Shown: one piece after another, positions 4,989-29,996 of the stretch
Numbering within the stretch: the stretch's first letter is position 1
Layout: every line of letters begins with the position of its first letter
Origin: a virus
Taxonomy: Duplodnaviria > Caudoviricetes
Direction: 5' to 3' (one strand)
IMG/VR virus record: IMGVR_UViG_3300037761_000271
Coordinates: 22,486 to 86,485 of that record
Length of the DNA: 64,000 nt
Translations under genes and position numbers: made by a program
The notes under the pieces: model-generated
The model's input: only the letters and a program-made list of their open reading frames with translations
What the model was told of the DNA's origin: nothing
Database searches by the model: none

Positions 4989-5350
4989 CTGGGCTGCCGA
5001 TGAGCGAGGACGAGCTGGTGACCAGCGTGTGTGACCTGGCCGCGACGGTCGGTCTGCGGGTGGCCCACTTCCGGCCGGCCCGCACCAACCGCGGCTGGCG
5101 CACACCGTTGCAGGGCAACGGTGGGGCCGGGTTCCCGGACACGGTGATCTGGGGGCCGGGCGGGCTGCTGCTGCGGGAGCTGAAACAGGACCGGGCCTAC
5201 CCGTCGCAGGTGCAGCGGCAGCGGGCTGACGAGTTGCGGGCCGCCGGCGCCGACGTGGGCGTGTGGAAGCCACGTGACTGGCACTCGGGGCGCATCCATG
5301 ACGAGCTGCGGGCGATCAGCCGCTACGCGGACAGGGGGAAACGTGTCTGA
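4985..5350 (+). CDS. VRR-NUC-like nuclease
   Basis: GFPDTV..RELK..Q..GADVGVWKP (PD-(D/E)xK). Confidence 0.8.
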   Translation: MTGLPMSEDELVTSVCDLAATVGLRVAHFRPARTNRGWRTPLQGNGGAGFPDTVIWGPGGLLLRELKQDRAYPSQVQRQRADELRAAGADVGVWKPRDWHSGRIHDELRAISRYADRGKRV

Positions 5351-5538
5351 GACGACCGAGCAGGCCGAGCCCGTGGTCCGGTTCACCCTGGCCCCCACCA
5401 GCGGGGAGAGCGGCCGGACCGGTCCGCTGCTGGTGGTGCCGCTGCCCACGGACGCCCGGCTGGTCACCGCGGTGATGCTGGCCGCCTCCGGCTGGTGGGA
5501 GCACCGCTACGGCCGGGCAAGCGAGCCCTGGAGGTGCC

Positions 5539-6804
5539 ATGCTGACCGGTCGTAGGTACCTGCTCGCGTTGACACCTGAGCAGGAGCAGTACGCCGAGCA
5601 GGTCGCCGGGATCTGTCGGGCGGTGTGGAACACCGGCCTGGAGCAACGCCGCGTCTACCGTCGGCGAGGTGCGTTTGTCGGCTACGCGCAGCAGTGCCGC
5701 GAGTTGGCGGGGGCGAAGCGGGAGCCGGGTTTGGAGTGGTTGGCCGACGCGCCGAGCCACTGCCTTCAGCAAACGTTGCGGGATCTCGACCGGGCGTGCC
5801 GGACCCATGGTACGTGGAAGGTGCGGTGGCGGTCGAAGTCTCGCACGGCACCGTCGTTCCGGTTTCCCGAAGGACCCGAGATCATCGTTGAGCGCGTGAA
5901 TCGCCGCTGGGGTCGGGTTAAGTTGCGGAGATTCGGTTGGGTGCGGTTCCGCTGGACCCGCACGCTCGGCGGCCAGATCCGCAACGCGACTGTGCTGAGG
6001 GACGGTGGCCGCTGGTGCATCTCGTTCTGCATCGAGGACGGTGTCGAGCCGGCCACGCCGAACGGGCATCCGCCGGTGGGTGTCGACCGGGGTGTGGTTG
6101 TGGCGGTGGCCACGTCCGACGGCCAGCTGCGGGACCGCGAGGTGGCCACATCCGGCGAGGCGATGCGGCTGCGGCGGTTGCACCAGCAGCTTGCCCGGTC
6201 GCGGCGGGTGCATGGCCGTAACCGTGCCTCCCGGCGACGGGACGCGACCCGACGGAAGCTGGCCGCGCTGCATTCCCACATCCGGGCGCGTCGCACCGAC
6301 TTCAACGCCTGCACGGCTCACCGCCTGACCCGAGACCACGGCCTGATCGTCGTCGAGGACCTGCGGGTTAGGAACATGACCCGATCCGCCAAGGGCACCA
6401 TCGAGGCGCCCGGCACCAATGTTCGGCAGAAGGCCAGCCTGAACCGATCGGTCTTGTCGAAGGGATGGGGGCAGCTAGTCGCCCGGCTGGAGCACAAGGC
6501 CCGGTACCACGGCTCGACCGTGGTCAAGGTCAACCCTGCATACACGTCGCAGCGTTGCTCCGCCTGTGGGCATGTGGACCCGAAGTCCCGCGAGAGCCAA
6601 GCGGTCTTCCGGTGCACAGCCTGCGGGTATACGGACAACGCGGACGTGAACGCGGCTAAGAACATCCTTGCCGCAGGGCTTGCGGTGACAGGGCGTGGAG
6701 ACCTCGCCGTTGGGCGGTCCGCGAAGCGCCAACTACCCAGAGGGAGCACGGCATTGAACCGTAACCCTGGGAACCCTTTGCCTTCAGGCGGGGGTGGACG
6801 TCAA
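5539..6804 (+). mobile_element. IS200/IS605 (IS1341-like) remnant: tnpB plus right end, no tnpA or left end seen
   Basis: Right-end hairpin GGGAACCCTTTGCCTTCAGGCGGGGGTGGACGTCAA at 6769-6804. Confidence 0.7.
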
Positions 6805-6966
6805 GAGCAGCTGTTCAGGGAGCAGGCAGCGGCAACCTCCAACGAAACGCCGGTTTCGTTGGAGGTTGAGCCCGAACGTGCAACAGACATTGGGGGTGGG
6901 GACAGGCACTCCGCCGTGGAGGACCAGCCGCCGCTCCCAGACCAGACGGGAGCCGATCGTGGCTGA
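5539..6966 (+). CDS. tnpB: TnpB RNA-guided endonuclease #1; ORF reads through the right end
   Basis: RuvC D (VGVDRG), E (VVEDL), D (NADVNAA); CxxC..CxxC zinc ribbon. Confidence 0.93.
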   Translation: MLTGRRYLLALTPEQEQYAEQVAGICRAVWNTGLEQRRVYRRRGAFVGYAQQCRELAGAKREPGLEWLADAPSHCLQQTLRDLDRACRTHGTWKVRWRSKSRTAPSFRFPEGPEIIVERVNRRWGRVKLRRFGWVRFRWTRTLGGQIRNATVLRDGGRWCISFCIEDGVEPATPNGHPPVGVDRGVVVAVATSDGQLRDREVATSGEAMRLRRLHQQLARSRRVHGRNRASRRRDATRRKLAALHSHIRARRTDFNACTAHRLTRDHGLIVVEDLRVRNMTRSAKGTIEAPGTNVRQKASLNRSVLSKGWGQLVARLEHKARYHGSTVVKVNPAYTSQRCSACGHVDPKSRESQAVFRCTACGYTDNADVNAAKNILAAGLAVTGRGDLAVGRSAKRQLPRGSTALNRNPGNPLPSGGGGRQEQLFREQAAATSNETPVSLEVEPERATDIGGGDRHSAVEDQPPLPDQTGADRG

Positions 6967-8017
6967 GCACAGCAGCATCGAGTGGACGGAAGCGACCCTC
7001 AACGTCGTCACCGGCTGCACGAAGGTCAGCGATGGGTGCATCCACTGTTACATCGAGCGGACCCCACCGTTCCGCAAGGATGGGCGCCGGTTCGACAAGC
7101 CGGGAATTGGCGGCTCGACTGGGCTGGTGTTCCACCCGGAGCGGCTGGTGCTGCCGATGCGGTGGCGAAAGCCCAGGCGGATCTTCGTAAACAGCCTCAG
7201 CGACTTGTGGCATGACGATGTGCCGGACGGGCTGATCGCCGCCTTGTGGTTCATGATGGGCCAGTCGGCCGGGATGATCCCGGAGCGGTACCGCGGCCAC
7301 ACCTTCCAGATCCTCACGAAGCGGCCGGCCCGGATGCGGGCGTGGCTGCGCAGGTGGGCCGACACCGGTGACCCGGCGATCCAGCCGATGGACCCGGCGG
7401 CCAGCCGTTGCGGCCGGGCCGAGCTGGTTGAGGCGGCGGCGGAGTATCTGGGCGGGCCGACCGCCTACGACTGGATGGATGGCCCCCGGTACTGGCCCAC
7501 CGCCCTACCTGGTGTGTGGCTCGGCGTATCGGCCGAGGACCAGCGGTCGGCCGACAACCGGATTCCGATCCTGAATGAATGCCCGGCGGTGGTGCGGTTT
7601 GTGTCCGCCGAGCCGCTGCTGGGGCCGGTCGACCTGACTCACCACCTGTCGTTCGGTCACTGCCCCGAGCATGACTTTCCGGGCGGGTTTTGCGTGCAGC
7701 GCCAGCATCCCGGCGTGCATCACCTGAACTGGGTGATCGCCGGCGGGGAGAGCGGTCCGGGGGCGCGGCCGGCCCACCCGGACTGGTTCCAGTCACTGCG
7801 TGATCAGTGCCGGCAGGCGGGCGTGGCGTTCCACTTCAAGCAGTGGGGGGAGTGGGTCTACCGCAACCAAATGCCGGAGGAAACGTACGTCCAGCTCGAC
7901 CAGGCGATCAACCTAGCCCAGGCCCACCCCGAACCGTTCCGAGTGGGGAAGAAACGCGCTGGCCGGCTGCTGGACGGGCGCACCTGGGATGAGTACCCGG
8001 AGGTGTCCCATGCCTGA
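6959..8017 (+). CDS. Phage Gp37/Gp68 (DUF5131) radical-SAM-like protein
   Basis: SIEWTEATLNVVTGCTKVSDGCIHCY; FVNSLSDL; FVSAEPLLGPVDL; WVIAGGESGPGARP. Confidence 0.92.
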   Translation: MAEHSSIEWTEATLNVVTGCTKVSDGCIHCYIERTPPFRKDGRRFDKPGIGGSTGLVFHPERLVLPMRWRKPRRIFVNSLSDLWHDDVPDGLIAALWFMMGQSAGMIPERYRGHTFQILTKRPARMRAWLRRWADTGDPAIQPMDPAASRCGRAELVEAAAEYLGGPTAYDWMDGPRYWPTALPGVWLGVSAEDQRSADNRIPILNECPAVVRFVSAEPLLGPVDLTHHLSFGHCPEHDFPGGFCVQRQHPGVHHLNWVIAGGESGPGARPAHPDWFQSLRDQCRQAGVAFHFKQWGEWVYRNQMPEETYVQLDQAINLAQAHPEPFRVGKKRAGRLLDGRTWDEYPEVSHA

Positions 8018-8018
8018 C

Positions 8019-9310
8019 CGGGATGTAGCGCGCAGGCTCCTGGCCTTCAGGCCGGTGATAGCGCACCCATTCCGTGATGACAGGACCACGTGCTATTCTG
8101 TCAACCATGTCGGGTCGGGTGGTGAGGCGGGCGTACAAGTACCGCTTCTACCCCACCCCCGCGCAGGCCGAGCAGCTGGCCAAAACGTTCGGGTGCGTCC
8201 GCTATGTCTACAACCGGGCATTGGCGGAGCGGTCGAGGGCATGGACGCAAGAGCAGCGGCGGGTCACGCATGCCGAGTCCGACCGGTGGCTAACCGCATG
8301 GAAACGGGACCCGGATACCGGGTGGCTCACCGAGCCGTCGAAGGGGCCGTTGCAGGCCACGCTGCGGCACCTGCAAACCGCGTACGTGAACTTCTGGCAG
8401 AAGCGAGCCAGGTACCCGACGTTCAAACGGAAGGGCAGGACACACGACTCGGCCACCTACTTCCGCGGCTGCTTCACCTACCGGGACGACAAGGTCACAC
8501 TGGCGAAGCAGGACCGGCCGCTGGACATCGTGTGGTCCCGCCCGCTGCCGGAGGGTGCGGTCCCGTCGCAGGTCACGGTGTCGCGGAACTCACGCGGCCA
8601 GTACCACATCTCGATCCTGGTCGAGACCACCGTTACGCCGCTGCCGACGACGGGTTCAACGGTGGGCGTGGACGTGGGGATCACCAGCCTGGTCACTCTG
8701 TCGAGCGGGGAGAAGGTCACCAACCCGCGCCACGAGAAGTGGGACCGGGCCAAGCTGCGACGCGCCCAGCGGGCGCTAGCACGGAAGCAGAAGGGATCGG
8801 CGAACCGGGCGAAAGCCAAGCTCCGGGTCGCCCGCATCCACGGACGGATCGCCGACCGCAGGCGGGACGCCCTGCACAAGCTCACCACGAGACTGGTACG
8901 CCAGCACGACGCGATCACTATCGAGGATCTGTCGGTGCGGAACATGGTGCGCAACCACAGCCTGGCCCGAGCGATTTCGGACGCATCGTGGTCGGAGCTG
9001 CGGCGGATGTTGGAGTACAAGGCCGACTGGTACGGCCGGAAGGTGATAGCGATCGACCGCTGGTACCCGTCCAGCAAGACCTGCTCGGCGTGCGGCGTGA
9101 TCGTGGAGAATCTGCCGCTGGGGGTGCGGGAGTGGACGTGCCGCTGCGGCGCGGTCCACGATCGAGACGTGAACGCGGCCAAGGTCATACACGCGGCGGG
9201 GCTCGCCGTGTCTGCCTGCGGAGGCTGAGTGAGACCGCCCCGCACTTAGTGCGGGGAGGCGTTGGCCGATGAACCAGGAATCTCCCTGCCTTCAGGCGGG
9301 AGAGCGTCAC
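8019..9310 (+). mobile_element. Complete non-autonomous IS605-type element (left end, tnpB, right end) inserted after CTGAC
   Basis: Left hairpin GGCTCCTGGCCTTCAGGCCGG; right hairpin TCTCCCTGCCTTCAGGCGGGAGA-GCGTCAC; removing it restores ATG CCT GAC|CAG CAT CAC in frame. Confidence 0.8.
8107..9228 (+). CDS. tnpB: TnpB RNA-guided endonuclease #2
   Basis: RAYKYRFYPT HTH; VGVDVG, TIEDL, DRDVNAA; zinc ribbon; leaderless promoter TGcTATTCT-7 nt-ATG. Confidence 0.95.
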   Translation: MSGRVVRRAYKYRFYPTPAQAEQLAKTFGCVRYVYNRALAERSRAWTQEQRRVTHAESDRWLTAWKRDPDTGWLTEPSKGPLQATLRHLQTAYVNFWQKRARYPTFKRKGRTHDSATYFRGCFTYRDDKVTLAKQDRPLDIVWSRPLPEGAVPSQVTVSRNSRGQYHISILVETTVTPLPTTGSTVGVDVGITSLVTLSSGEKVTNPRHEKWDRAKLRRAQRALARKQKGSANRAKAKLRVARIHGRIADRRRDALHKLTTRLVRQHDAITIEDLSVRNMVRNHSLARAISDASWSELRRMLEYKADWYGRKVIAIDRWYPSSKTCSACGVIVENLPLGVREWTCRCGAVHDRDVNAAKVIHAAGLAVSACGG

Positions 9311-9546
9311 CAGCATCACGTGTCGACGGACTGGTTTCGCCGCCGCGGCGGCTGGGCGTGGTGGTGTTCCTGTCTGACCGACGGTGAGGGGGTGTACCCG
9401 GACGGGGACGGTGCCCGCCGGTCCGGGGCCCGGCATCAGGCCGAGCGGGTGGCTGAGGCGTTGGCCCACGGCGCACCCCAGGTTGCAGCCGCTGCCGGGC
9501 TTGTAGGTGCGTGGGATGCCGGTAGCCCACAAGGCGGTGACGGGAA

Positions 9547-25601: not shown

Positions 25602-26537
25602 ATGCATCCTGCTGCTGCGTCTTCACGCTTTGCCGACGAACCGCGTGGCGGCTCGTGCCCGGCCTGCCGCCGGCGGGACCCGAAGATGGGGCTGGTGTGC
25701 GACCCGTGCTGGGACTGGCTGCCTACCGCCCTGTCCGGGGTCGGGAGCCGTTACCGGCAGCTTCCCGCCTACCTGGTGCCATCGGACCAGGTAGGCGAGC
25801 GGGTGTCCGGCACCCCGGACCCGGCGGCTCCGCTGAACTTGGACGTGGAGGACCTGCTGACCCGGGTGGTGCGCCTGGGTGGGCAGCCGGTCGACGGGGT
25901 GACCGTGGCGCTGGCCCCGGCCACCGAGCTGGAGTTGGCACGTAAGCGGATGGCCACCTTCGACCCGCAGTCCGCCGAGCACACCTGGTGGTGGGTGGAG
26001 GCGTACGAGCGGCGGCCGGTGCTTGGCCTGGACGGTCAGCCGGTGCTCCGCCCGATCGCCGACCAGGTGGGCTACCTGCCGGTGGCGCAGGTGCTCGACT
26101 CGTGGGCCAGGGAGTGGGTGGAGATGCGTGGTATGCGGGAACATCACCCGTCCCCGACGGTGGCGGTGCTGGTCGACTGGCTGGCCGCCCGGCTGGACTG
26201 GGCCTGCCGCCGCTTCGGTGCGGTCGGCGACTTCGCCGAGAGCATGCGTACCCTCCGCGGGCAGCTCATGTCGGTGCTGGGCGAGTTCGACCCGCCGCCG
26301 CAGCCGTGCGACGGGGTGCAGTGCAAACGCTGCGATCGGCGGGAGCTGTTCGTGGTCCCGGATGGCTCCGGCGACAGAGCCTGCGCCAACGAATCGTGCA
26401 TGCGTGTCTATCGGGAGGAGGAGTTTCACGACTGGGTGCGGCACCTAGCCGGGTATGAGCGGTCCCGCCGCACTGCGGAGGAGATCCGGGAGCTGCTGCA
26501 CCCCTCATACCGCCGACCCGACCCGGATACGGCCTGA
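25602..26537 (+). CDS. Zinc-ribbon phage protein, probable late regulator
   Basis: Multiple CxxC motifs; position upstream of the packaging module. Confidence 0.6.
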   Translation: MHPAAASSRFADEPRGGSCPACRRRDPKMGLVCDPCWDWLPTALSGVGSRYRQLPAYLVPSDQVGERVSGTPDPAAPLNLDVEDLLTRVVRLGGQPVDGVTVALAPATELELARKRMATFDPQSAEHTWWWVEAYERRPVLGLDGQPVLRPIADQVGYLPVAQVLDSWAREWVEMRGMREHHPSPTVAVLVDWLAARLDWACRRFGAVGDFAESMRTLRGQLMSVLGEFDPPPQPCDGVQCKRCDRRELFVVPDGSGDRACANESCMRVYREEEFHDWVRHLAGYERSRRTAEEIRELLHPSYRRPDPDTA

Positions 26538-26668
26538 CCAGCGTGTCGGCCCCACCCCACTTGCCCATTCGCGATCACGGGCGTTACTCTGCGGGTGGAT
26601 TCCTGTGCCCACTTCCGCCCCGACTCCTGCTGGTCGGGGTGTTGTCGTGCCCGCCGCCGGGGGTGTTC

Positions 26669-26971
26669 ATGCCCCAGGCCGGCCCCGACACGGGGGTTCC
26701 TCGCGCGTTCGCCGCCGCCCGGCTTGGCGTGTCCCCGCACACGGTGAGCATGTGGGCGGCCCGCGGCTATGTTGCCCGGTGGACCGACGACGCTGGCGTG
26801 GAGCACACCGAGCACCGGCCGGTGCGCACGGTCGGCTGGTGGCGTGGCCACCGGCTCTACCGGTGGGGTGACCTGGTCGAGGCCGAGCACCACACCCGCA
26901 ACACCGTCCTGTCGGCGCGCCACCAGGACCGCTCCCCCGCCACCGGCTCCCATGTCGGTGCCCAGGCCTAG
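26669..26971 (+). CDS. MerR-like HTH DNA-binding protein
   Basis: AAARLGVSPHTVSMWAARG..HRLYRWGDL. Confidence 0.7.
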   Translation: MPQAGPDTGVPRAFAAARLGVSPHTVSMWAARGYVARWTDDAGVEHTEHRPVRTVGWWRGHRLYRWGDLVEAEHHTRNTVLSARHQDRSPATGSHVGAQA

Positions 26972-27116
26972 ACTCATCCCACGGCCCCGACCAACCCAGT
27001 TCGGGCGGCCCCCGACCCTTCCCCGCTGACCCCCCGCTCACGCAAGAGGGGTCGCCGAGGGCCGCCCACAACTTCCCCACCTTCTCGCGGCCCAGTCAGC
27101 CCGAACCAAACCAAAC

Positions 27117-28433
27117 CCCGGCGTGATGCCGGTTGACGTCCTCCACGCCCAAAAGGCGTCGGATTCCAACCTAGGCTGCGAGCAGCTCGGGTTGAGGTTC
27201 GCGGTTCACGGGCTCGCCCAGCGGCGAGCCTCCCCGCGCAGTCACGGCGCGCCCCGCCGCGATGTCCCTGATGTTGCAGGCCGCGTTCACGTCGGCGTTG
27301 GCCACGTGCCCGCAGGCGAGGCACCGGAACACCGCTTGGCTCTCGCGGTTCTCGGCTGCGCAGTGCCCGCAGGCGTTGCAGGTCAACGACGTGAACGCAG
27401 GCTTAACTTTGGCGATGCGGCCAGGCGCCTTACCTTCCAGGCGCTCGACCAGTAGCCCCCAGCCAGCGGACAGAATCGCCTTGTTGAGGCCGGTCTTTTG
27501 CCTAATGTTCCGGCCCGGCGCCTCGACAGTGCCTCTGGCCGACCGGGTCATGCTGGCGATCTTCAGGTCCTCTACCGCGATCAGGTCGAACCGGCGGGCC
27601 AGGTCGGTGGTGGTCTTCTCCACCCAGTCCTTCCGCCGGTCCGTCTCGCGCGTCCTCAGCCTGGAGATTGCCAACTTGGTTCTGCTGCGCCGGGTGGACC
27701 CTCGTTTGGCGCGAACCAGCTTTCGCCGGAGGCTGAGCAGCCGACGCCGCTCAGCTGGCCGAAGGGTCGGCACGGTCGACAGCTCACCGGTGGACAGCGC
27801 GACCGCCGCGACCACGCCCCGGTCCACACCCACCTCTGCCCCGTTGCCCGGCCCCGGGATCGGCTCCGGGATCGTGGCGAACGCGACATGCCACCGCCCC
27901 GCTCGGTCACGGGTGACCCGGTACGACTTCACCCCGTCGGGCACCGGTCGGGACCAGCGGAAACTTATCCAGCCGATCTTCGGCACCTTGACCTGACCGA
28001 CGTTGCGCGACAGCCGACGAACATCCCAATGGGTGCCGACCCCAGTACCTCGCTGGCCAACGACACGGAATCCTTCGTCCCTGCCTGCCTTCCGCCACTT
28101 CGGCAGTCGGTGGCTGCCTTCGTAGAAGAGCGCCATCGCGGCAGCGAAGTCCCGCAGTGCCTGCTGCTGGACGGTCACGGAGCCGCCGCGCAGCCACTCG
28201 TGCTCGGCCCGGGCCGCGGTCAGCTGCCGACACTGTTCGGCGAACCTAGGTGCCGGACCGCGTTGCCGGCTCCACCAGGAGTGCTGCTCAACGGCCAGGT
28301 TCCAGACGAACCGGGCGTGTGCGCAGTGCTCCAGCAGCGCCGCCTCCTGGGCGGCCGTGGGCTGAAGACGGTAGCGCGACACAACGGCACCATACGACAC
28401 AGGTGTGACAACAGCTCCCGGCGTGATGCCGGT
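27117..28433 (-). mobile_element. tnpB element with right end (..GGAGGACGTCAA ending at 27133), flanked by a 17-bp direct repeat
   Basis: CCCGGCGTGATGCCGGT at 27117-27133 and 28417-28433; no left-end hairpin or tnpA seen. Confidence 0.8.
27171..28382 (-). CDS. tnpB: TnpB RNA-guided endonuclease #3
   Basis: MSRYRLQPT start; VGVDRG, AVEDL, NADVNAA; zinc ribbon. Confidence 0.95.
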   Translation of the reverse strand: MSRYRLQPTAAQEAALLEHCAHARFVWNLAVEQHSWWSRQRGPAPRFAEQCRQLTAARAEHEWLRGGSVTVQQQALRDFAAAMALFYEGSHRLPKWRKAGRDEGFRVVGQRGTGVGTHWDVRRLSRNVGQVKVPKIGWISFRWSRPVPDGVKSYRVTRDRAGRWHVAFATIPEPIPGPGNGAEVGVDRGVVAAVALSTGELSTVPTLRPAERRRLLSLRRKLVRAKRGSTRRSRTKLAISRLRTRETDRRKDWVEKTTTDLARRFDLIAVEDLKIASMTRSARGTVEAPGRNIRQKTGLNKAILSAGWGLLVERLEGKAPGRIAKVKPAFTSLTCNACGHCAAENRESQAVFRCLACGHVANADVNAACNIRDIAAGRAVTARGGSPLGEPVNREPQPELLAA

Positions 28434-28508
28434 GAGAGCCCCGAGACCACCGGTCCGGGGCTTCTCTGCCGCCCCGTGACGGGGCTATCCGTGAAGGAGC
28501 AACCACCC

Positions 28509-28790
28509 ATGCCCAAGGAGAGCGTCTACTGCGTCGCCGACCGGCAGTACCGGGTCGATGTCGGCTGGAGCCGGGACCGCGACCACGTGGAGATCGGCAC
28601 CGACACCAACACGGCCGTGGGCATCCACAACCTGGTCCAGCACCTCCCGGACTCGGAGACACCCGGCGTCCGCTACGAGGGTCCGATCGCCTGGAACGGT
28701 CTGCACTGCCAGCTCGACCGCCGCGCGGTCAACGACCTGATCTATCTGCTGCGTAGGGCGCGGGACCAGGCGTTCGGCAAGGACGCATAA
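28509..28790 (+). CDS. Hypothetical phage protein
   Basis: RBS AAGGAG. Confidence 0.65.
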   Translation: MPKESVYCVADRQYRVDVGWSRDRDHVEIGTDTNTAVGIHNLVQHLPDSETPGVRYEGPIAWNGLHCQLDRRAVNDLIYLLRRARDQAFGKDA

Positions 28791-28886
28791 CCCGCACCAC
28801 TTCGACCGGGGCCGGCCCCGTGTCCCGGGATGTGCCCGGGGCCGGCCCTGCAAACATCCCGCCGCATCCCGAACCCTGGAGTACCC

Positions 28887-29219
28887 ATGTCCGACCCGGT
28901 GATCACCGGCACGGCTGATGTGCGTCACCTGCCGGTGGCCGAGTTTCGCCAAACCGGCTTCCTGCAAGAGGTGAACCGGCAGTTTCTGCACCCGCTGGGC
29001 CTGGCCCTGTCGGTCGAGCTGGCCCCGGACGGGTCGGAGCGGCTGGGCGCGATCTGGGACTGCCGGGACGACCCGGAGGGTATCCGGTTCGTGCCGTCTG
29101 CGGTCGACCCGGACAAGGCGCGGCGGGTGGCCGAGCAGCGGGAGCGCCTGGCAGGTTCGCGGCAGGCCCGGCTGGGGTACGTGGTGCAGCCGGCCCCTGA
29201 TGCTGGGGCGCCGGCATGA
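28887..29219 (+). CDS. Hypothetical phage protein
   Basis: RBS GGAG; GFLQEVNRQFLHPLGLAL. Confidence 0.65.
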   Translation: MSDPVITGTADVRHLPVAEFRQTGFLQEVNRQFLHPLGLALSVELAPDGSERLGAIWDCRDDPEGIRFVPSAVDPDKARRVAEQRERLAGSRQARLGYVVQPAPDAGAPA

Positions 29220-29463
29220 CGTGGCAGGCGTTCGTCGTGCCCGACTACCTCAGCATGGGCCGTGGCGTACACATCTACCTCGGACTAAAGCGCCCGGATG
29301 GCTCCATGACGGCGACGTGGCCCATGCTCTGCTCGATGCGCTCGCAGCGCACTACGGCGGCACGTCGGATCTTCGGCGGCTGCGGGCCGACTACGACGCC
29401 GAGCGGCGCCGGGTGGACAAGATGATTGACCGGTTGACGCTGCCCGAGCGGCCCGCTCGGTGA
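29216..29463 (+). pseudogene. Probable frameshifted small gene
   Basis: N-terminus in the frame of 29216; plausible C-terminus (HALLDALAAHYGG..DYDAERRRVD) in the frame of 29200. Confidence 0.45.
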
Positions 29464-29996
29464 CGGTCATCGTCGGGCTGGTCCACAACGGTGTGGTGCA
29501 CCTGGGTGGTGACTCGGCCGGCATCTCCGGCTGGGATCTGACTGTCCGCGCCGACCCGAAGGTGTTCACTGTCGGCCCTTACGCGATCGGGTACACCACC
29601 AGCTTCCGCATGGGCCAACTGCTGCGCTGGTCGTTCGACCCGCCCAAACCGGACACGGCCAAGCTGGACCGGTTCATGACGACCACGTTCGTCGACGCCG
29701 CCCGGGCCGCGTTCAAGGCTGGCGGCTGGGCGAAGAAGGACAGCGAGCAGGAGGAAGGCGGCCAGTGGCTGGTGGGCGTGGCGGGCCGGCTGTTCGAGGT
29801 CGGCGGCGACTACCAGGTGGGTGAGCCGGCCGGCGGGTACGCGGCGATCGGCTGCGGCGGCCAGGCTGCCCACGGTGCCCTGTACGCCACCCCGACCCTG
29901 GCACCACGGCGGCGGTTGCAGCTGGCGCTGGAGGCCGCGCAGCATCACAGCGCCGGGGTCCGCGGACCCTTCACCTACGTGAGGAGCCGGGCGTGA
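29460..29996 (+). CDS. Ntn-hydrolase (HslV/proteasome beta-like) protein
   Basis: N-terminal M-T-VIVG..GGDS..; AIGCGG..A.GAL. Confidence 0.7.
   Translation: MTVIVGLVHNGVVHLGGDSAGISGWDLTVRADPKVFTVGPYAIGYTTSFRMGQLLRWSFDPPKPDTAKLDRFMTTTFVDAARAAFKAGGWAKKDSEQEEGGQWLVGVAGRLFEVGGDYQVGEPAGGYAAIGCGGQAAHGALYATPTLAPRRRLQLALEAAQHHSAGVRGPFTYVRSRA

Follow-up and report, generated by a model that had tools for sequence, protein, structure and literature searches.

The tnpB cassette and its flanking repeat

We analyzed a tnpB cassette carried by an uncultured phage, known from an IMG/VR record of 86,485 bases. The cassette lies inside a 64-kb stretch of that record (the window), to which the coordinates below refer. 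It is an antisense insert in a phage intergenic region, between a gene for a MerR-like protein and a gene of phrog_10659. The features of the locus are listed here in ascending order.

26669..26971, plus strand (opposite to tnpB): flanking phage gene for a MerR-like regulator (phrog_2474, E 2e-7)
27117..27132, minus strand: right copy of the 16-mer, the predicted guide and target, abutting the right end and followed by GGTTTGGTTTGGTT
27133..27262, minus strand: omega/reRNA scaffold, overlapping the tnpB 3' end and the right end, with the stem GACGCC-TTTT-GGGCGT and then GGAGGACGTCAA
27171..28382, minus strand: tnpB coding sequence, 403 amino acids plus stop, GTG at 28382 to TAG at 27171, apparently intact
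28383..28416, minus strand: 34-nt spacer from the left copy to the tnpB start, holding TTGTCA and TATGGT
28417..28432, minus strand: left copy of the guide-identical 16-mer CCGGCATCACGCCGGG, an exact match that ends at or adjoining the -35 of the tnpB promoter
28432..28435, minus strand: TCAC, a TAM of the family type, whose last C overlaps the left copy by one base
28509..28790, plus strand: flanking phage gene of unknown function (phrog_10659), with a ribosome-binding site and an ATG 75 nt past the left copy

The TnpB protein matches the Pfam families HTH_OrfB_IS605, OrfB_IS605, and Cas12f1-like_TNB. It is 62 to 78% identical to the members of a large Streptosporangiales family, with its closest homologues (P0002, P0003, and P0012) at 75 to 78%. 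Alignment with ISDra2 TnpB showed the RuvC D/E/D residues and both CxxC pairs of the zinc ribbon, in agreement with the intact triad claimed by an earlier reading of this DNA from its letters alone (the sequence-only reading). A start at 28400, as given in the list of open reading frames (ORFs), was replaced because all relatives begin at the MSRYRL codon, which places the start at GTG 28382. The TATGGT proposed as a -10 element is present, and its position is corrected to 28394..28389, 6 nt ahead of that GTG. The 34-nt spacer that holds it is likely a leaderless-type promoter of tnpB.

An exact 17-nt direct repeat, ACCGGCATCACGCCGGG in the minus-strand reading, flanks the gene at 28433..28417 and 27133..27117, as first reported from the letters. 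Sixteen of its bases are flank and one is the terminal base of the right end, and it has exactly two copies in the window and likewise in the entire 86,485-base record. Its palindromic character also held: the dyad has 5-nt arms and a 5-nt spacer and folds as an RNA hairpin at -9.5 kcal/mol. The hairpin of the 16-mer stands among other hairpins of the intergenic region. The IS200/IS605 family makes no target duplication (PMC13565253), and the IS1341 group within it is defined in part by that absence, whereas here an exact repeat of 16 to 17 nt is found at both junctions.

No match to Y1_Tnp (tnpA) was found anywhere in the 86,485-base phage record, which extends to the whole record the absence of tnpA noted previously. 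Y1_Tnp matches occur in two of three related host-type genomes, unlinked to elements with these ends, and neither in the phage record nor in those three genomes could a cognate TnpA be tied to this TnpB family. Rfam gave no family match across 26000..29500. The cassette belongs to the IS200/IS605 family and is of the IS1341 type, consisting of tnpB and an omega RNA with no left end.

The window holds two other TnpB elements, and neither has a guide self-match. One (5539..6803, plus strand) has a right end of ...GGGGGTGGACGTCAA at 6803 and a predicted guide of GAGCAGCTGTTCAGGG; its ORF continues beyond the right end to 6966, and its tnpB starts within the 3' end of an upstream plus-strand ORF (5274..5555), so that a left end of about 115 nt would not fit. 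The other, element 2 (8018..9325, plus strand; coding sequence about 8107..9228), stands directly behind a DUF5131 gene (6794..8017) that the two elements bracket. It has a left-end-like hairpin after TGAC and a right end of GAGCGTCA(C), where its relatives have ...AGTCAA. The 14-mer TCACCRGCATCACG occurs at the right-end junction of element 2 (9307..9320, plus strand) and at the left copy (28435..28422, minus strand) and nowhere else in the window; 0.07 occurrences would be expected, for a pattern chosen post hoc. It may be that similar phage sequences received two unrelated TnpB elements.

Element ends, guide, and TAM in the family

We used relatives of the element to place its boundaries. 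Eighty came from species-representative genomes, mostly of Streptosporangiales, at 62 to 71% identity, a further 23 came from viral contigs and 80 from metagenomes, and 130 more were extracted from 400 genomes of the same order. Past the stop codon, they share their DNA sequence as far as ...TTGGAATCC-hairpin-GGAGGAYGTCAA, and the similarity is lost from the following base on; in 70 homologous elements, the conserved stretch ends exactly behind GGAGGAYGTCAA. The family right-end profile matches the window over its full length, with 27133 as the last position (E 2e-8). The right end of the element is therefore 27133, terminating in ...GGAGGACGTCAA, and both the 70-element conservation and the profile uphold the boundary drawn before between GACGTCAA and CCGG.... 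The right end is that of the IS1341 group: it bears a subterminal hairpin, its terminus is conserved, and the omega/reRNA scaffold is encoded there. The last 150 nt have a consensus fold with compensatory changes in 15 of 23 pairs, to which the window sequence conforms.

With this boundary, the predicted guide remains the flank just past the right end, where the sequence-only reading had put it, and would read CCGGCATCACGCCGGG (27132..27117), following the precedent of ISDra2 TnpB, whose guide derives from about 16 nt of flank (PMC8612924). On the minus strand, 27100..27132 comprises the guide hairpin and then GGTTTGGTTTGGTT, and this stretch could be a weak intrinsic terminator that sets the 3' end of the omega RNA. 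We also considered the upstream region as the remnant of a second right end and rejected this, since the right-end profile matches the true right end alone.

Most relatives have, ahead of the start codon, a left end about 115 nt long. Its order is a TCAC or TCAT flank, a C, a few variable bases, ACCTACAGCGTGGAGG or CGCGGCGTGGAGA, a hairpin resembling that of the right end, the promoter-like TTGTC...TAGGTT, and, a few bases later, the GTG. The Y of TCAY and the base that precedes the left-end hairpin on its 5' side vary together: TCAC is paired with G in 21 of 23 elements and TCAT with A in 17 of 19. In IS608, it is bases 5' of such a subterminal hairpin that recognize the TnpA cleavage site. 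Because the covariation with the hairpin-flanking base points to recognition of that kind, we placed target base 1 right after the TCAY cleavage position, so that the family TAM, as read from these alignments, is TCAC or TCAT (TCAY), directly 5' of base 1. Across the left ends of L007 to L086, the same covariation suggests that this actinobacterial family has IS608-like recognition and a TAM that differs between elements. TCAC had been put forward as a plausible TAM type, and it is both the left-flank motif of the family and the experimental TAM (5'-TCAC) of AmaTnpB from Alicyclobacillus macrosporangiidus (PMC10278001).

Upstream of the window tnpB, the family left-end profile has no match, which bears out the missing left-end hairpin. 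An IS1341-group left end bears a subterminal hairpin and lies 3' of a specific tetra- or pentanucleotide, the TAM; this element has no such end. The only trace is a marginal resemblance in the last 35 nt or so (TTGTCA...TATGGT). The spacer at 28383..28416 is possibly the final part of the family left end: its TTGTC...TAnGnT layout is common to the family, and its similarity to the left end is otherwise marginal. The upstream hairpins were also considered as a degenerate left end starting from TTCAC at 28495..28491, and this was rejected: the profile does not match there, the hairpin spacing is 6 nt instead of about 20 nt, and this TTCAC is the complement of the ribosome-binding region of the phrog_10659 gene.

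The upstream copy had been proposed to be a target licensed by a TAM, and this is not supported. The four bases ahead of the upstream 16-nt match (28436..28433) are CTCA, which mismatch TCAY at every position. The TCAC at 28435..28432 lies one base out of register, and the DNA next to it reads CGGCATC..., one base off the guide CCGGCATC.... With the family TAM out of register with the guide match, cleavage or repression at the upstream copy is unlikely. The right copy is likewise without a TAM, as is the flank of every family element, so a second TAM-less copy is not in itself dangerous. The right flank was tried as the start of a second left end, as at a circle or tandem junction, and this was rejected: neither copy is followed by sequence homologous to a left end, and the one-base mismatch persists.

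These observations bear on the proposal that the left copy is a functional self-target, where TnpB with its omega RNA would be bound upstream of the -35 and would repress or tune tnpB. TnpB-derived RNA-guided transcription factors (TldR) are known, and the full 16-nt guide match here ends at or adjoining the -35 of the presumed promoter, a placement that would by itself permit such control. Furthermore, one TnpB tolerates weak TAMs (PMC11043419). However, the preceding CTCA differs from TCAY at all positions, and with the RuvC triad intact, a licensed full match would be cut and not just bound. None of the 212 other relatives has a long self-match near its promoter, and the guide folds on itself. 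RNA-guided autorepression thus gained no positive support from a locus with an intact nuclease and no proper TAM, and we regard it as quite improbable.

Guide-prefix matches and the proposed origin of the repeat

We searched the 400 nt upstream of tnpB in 213 distinct family elements for the first bases of each element's own guide. A guide prefix starting at guide base 1 was present in 3 of the 213 (about 1.4%), namely, the window element, L165, and L228, and the window element has the sole 16-nt match. L165 has TCAT followed by GCTGCGGTGC, a 10-nt prefix with an in-register TAM; its left end is almost complete, and the joint shows a 3-nt microhomology, TGC. L228 has TCAT followed by GGACAGGATGG, an 11-nt prefix, also with an in-register TAM; it has no left end and lies among tightly packed, phage-like genes, and its partial duplication leaves the frame of the upstream gene open to a nearby stop. 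When guides were permuted among loci, giving about 6,400 pairings, no match beside a TAM was longer than 7 nt. Guide-prefix duplications are therefore rare but not due to chance. In a second TnpB family, the relatives of element 2, none of 30 distinct elements has a guide duplication. The sequence-only reading had named homologues without duplications as evidence against its proposal, and this is largely what we found, in 210 of 213 elements; L165 and L228 nevertheless carry partial, TAM-adjacent duplications of 10 to 11 nt.

Shorter matches and other left-end variants were seen in the same survey. Guide-prefix matches of 9 nt in L253, L291, and L351 were set aside because they are no more than chance would give and their flanks do not go on into a left end. 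L036, L032, L050, and L052 have left ends that are otherwise canonical but whose 3 to 5 variable bases behind TCAY repeat the first 3 to 5 bases of the guide, with 5 nt in L036; the enrichment is only weak and may reflect very short remnants or chance. At other loci (L018, L022, L057, L077, L130, L132, L135, L136, L139, L146, and L151), a small divergent gene replaces the left end. Such a gene is found in many viral and some genomic relatives, and its product looks by eye like a ribbon-helix-helix protein of the CopG/Arc type; tnpB has its own short promoter region there. This arrangement, which is not that of a transposon, may be recurrent and is possibly regulated. L011 occupies the loop between the arms of a perfect 14-bp palindrome (left flank GAGCCGTGCGGCCC, right flank GGGCCGCACGGCTC), probably as an insertion into a terminator-like hairpin.

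Direct repeats of 12 to 15 nt between the upstream and downstream flanks occur at about 4% of 209 related loci, at random offsets, and among these loci a 16-nt repeat whose first base is guide base 1 is found for the window element alone. This excludes chance as the origin of the repeat. Of the readings considered, we favor, at about even odds, the one in which the repeat is a repair scar, left by copy-in at a site cut by TnpB, and not a switch for self-regulation.

From the anatomy of the locus, its right-end boundary, the family TAM, the loss of the left end, and the two parallel cases, we infer a TnpB cut, a donor, a route of repair, and an escape indel. The empty site would have been a TAM followed by CCGGCATCACGCCGGGG..., and TnpB would have cut it about 15 to 21 nt from the TAM. 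The TAM-distal end would then have invaded an element-bearing donor and copied target bases 1 to 16, the right end, and tnpB. Copying would have halted within the left end, and the new strand would have been joined without homology to the TAM-proximal stub (the TAM plus target bases 1 to 16). The product would be the TAM and target bases 1 to 16, the cassette from the truncated left end through tnpB to the right end, and the target again from base 1 through base 16 and beyond, with the left copy as the TAM-proximal remnant of the target.

The two junctions constrain how such a repair could have run. The right end abuts target base 1, as in a normal insertion, and the right junction must therefore be donor copied. 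A left junction made of a TAM, k target bases, and a truncated left end implies that the recipient target was broken at or beyond base k and joined without homology. Insertion through repair of a TnpB cut, as suggested earlier, is thus retained with respect to repair at the cut and an illegitimate left junction, but plain end joining of a free element is rejected because it would put the right end at base 16 to 21 and duplicate the overhang only. The remnants are 10, 11, and 16 nt long, all within 16 nt. ISDra2 TnpB cuts the nontarget strand 15 bp and the target strand 20 to 21 bp from the TAM (PMC8612924). By analogy with these positions, which are those of ISDra2 and not of this enzyme, the 16-nt remnant would be close to the nontarget-strand cut.

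Since the left copy has no in-register TAM, the copy-in repair needs an additional one-base indel. The shift could have arisen later in the C run, either as a deletion at the left TAM (TCAC followed by CCGG becoming TCA followed by CCGG) or as an extra C at the right-end/guide junction, and it would shield the full-length self-match from cleavage. One TnpB is active only with a guide of more than 14 nt (PMC11043419); a requirement of this kind would explain why the TAM is intact at the 10- and 11-nt stubs and shifted in register at the 16-nt stub.

The empty allele expected from such a repair would have one 16-mer, ...CTCTCAC(C)CGGCATCACGCCGGGGTTTGG, with an in-register TCAC (three Cs, or two if the indel was at the right-end/guide junction). 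Neither this allele nor a sibling phage was found in INPHARED by megablast of 5 kb. In IMG/VR, protein-seeded scans with both flanking genes gave no sibling, the best relatives being about 40% identical, and the exact 26-mer spanning the left copy and its flank revealed no empty allele in IMG/VR or the JGI metagenomes. When the right-hand flank was compared with 400 Streptosporangiales genomes by blastn, one gene matched at about 68 to 70% identity and no sibling appeared; tblastn of the phrog_10659 flanking gene against phages likewise found no sibling phage. The predicted empty site of L228 is absent from IMG/VR.

Several points speak against copy-in at a TnpB cut: the rarity of the pattern (3 of 213, and 0 of 30 in the second family), the marginal left-end similarity of the 34 nt, and the fact that the 16-mer is a hairpin in a hairpin-rich region, where a structure-prone duplication without TnpB is conceivable. 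The last point leads to an alternative in which illegitimate recombination or replication slippage in the hairpin-rich intergenic region made the repeat with no TnpB cleavage, as a by-product of cassette gain or of left-end loss. It agrees with the stable hairpin of the repeat amid other hairpins, with the 12- to 15-nt flank repeats at about 4% of related loci, and with the out-of-register TAM, which leaves a TnpB cut at this allele without direct support. However, background repeats lie at random offsets, whereas this one is 16 nt long and runs exactly from guide base 1, and slippage does not predict that L165 and L228 share the design with an in-register TAM. We hold slippage to be a real contender, although an unlikely one.

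Two other explanations place the origin of the repeat elsewhere. An ordinary TnpA insertion may have occurred beside a phage sequence that already had two copies, such as paired terminator or operator hairpins, with later decay of the left end. The canonical right junction fits this, and element 2 has the related 14-mer TCACCRGCATCACG where its own right end meets the flank, a hint that the motif may recur in the phage. Yet the two exact copies are the only ones in the 86-kb record, the left copy would abut the remaining promoter region by coincidence, and about 80 nt of the left end are missing, not decayed, while tnpB and the right end are intact; we consider this improbable. Alternatively, a circular cassette with the 17-mer may have integrated at a phage 17-mer by site-specific recombination, leaving attL/attR-like repeats. 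Identical direct repeats around an insert and their dyad symmetry would suit such a core, but there is no recombinase beside the cassette (the neighbor is a 100-amino-acid MerR-like protein without a catalytic domain), the right copy begins precisely at the family right-end boundary, which is unexpected for a recombinase core, and the L165 and L228 remnants are not palindromic. This explanation is highly improbable.

Possible spread of TnpB and comparison with known systems

TnpB genes are among the most abundant in prokaryotes, and the majority of copies have no transposase. To our knowledge, the arrival of solo TnpB copies at new sites is poorly documented. We tentatively propose that TnpB cassettes can spread in phages and bacteria without a transposase by cutting empty sites, followed by copy-in, and that incomplete copy-in leaves a scar composed of a TAM, the first k target bases, and a truncated left end. 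In such scars, k would be capped by the cut position (here 16), short stubs would keep their TAM, and a full-length stub would survive only with a one-base register break. The window cassette itself is presumably beyond TnpA mobilization and could still spread by guide-directed cuts in the empty sites of co-infecting sibling phages. If the proposal is true, the scars document, in natural sequences, both the geometry of TnpB cleavage and mobility without a transposase, and they offer a sequence-only estimate of the cut position and of the self-match length tolerated beside a TAM. A donor-copied side joined to a TAM-proximal stub would be genomic evidence of TnpA-independent, nuclease-driven spread, especially between co-infecting phages. 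The case at this single locus is circumstantial, and its value lies in the junction pattern common to L165 and L228.

The window TnpB shares with ISDra2 TnpB (PDB 8bf8 and 8h1j) the same domain set, RuvC triad, and zinc ribbon, as well as a guide-RNA scaffold that overlaps the tnpB 3' end and the right end and a guide taken from about 16 nt of flank. The two differ in sequence (about 25 to 30% identity) and in TAM (TCAY here, TTGAT in ISDra2). With AmaTnpB, the TCAC type of TAM is common to both, and this likeness is one of motif alone. The covariation of TCAY with the hairpin-flanking base in this family resembles the IS608 rule of end recognition, and the family right end reads GGAAT-hairpin-...TCAA; unlike IS608, the window element lacks the left-end hairpin altogether. 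Against the IS200/IS605 norm, it stands out by its missing left end together with its direct repeat. We class it as an IS1341-type TnpB element that has become a cassette without a left end, with what may well be a scar made of target remnant.

TldR and the window locus both have a guide-matching site by a promoter. In contrast to the nuclease-dead TldR, the window TnpB keeps its RuvC triad, and the TAM at the matching site is out of register.

The published function of IS605 TnpB is spread through a double-strand break and donor copying (PMC13565253 and bioRxiv 10.1101/2023.11.20.567912). Both papers discuss spread into homologous DNA that is driven by TnpB and independent of TnpA. As in TnpB homing, the guide here is directed against the sequence split by the element. 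Published homing, whether restorative or "non-restorative" into homologous DNA, yields a precise element, whereas the left junction here is imprecise; in the literature searched, we found no description of imprecise left junctions that retain a TAM-proximal target stub. The closest parallel in setting is with the free-standing phage homing endonucleases SegF and SegB and their intronless homing, in which a nuclease gene likewise lies between conserved phage genes (PMC13565253). Like these, the cassette could convert sibling phages in co-infection; unlike them, it would have its target read by an RNA guide and not by a protein.
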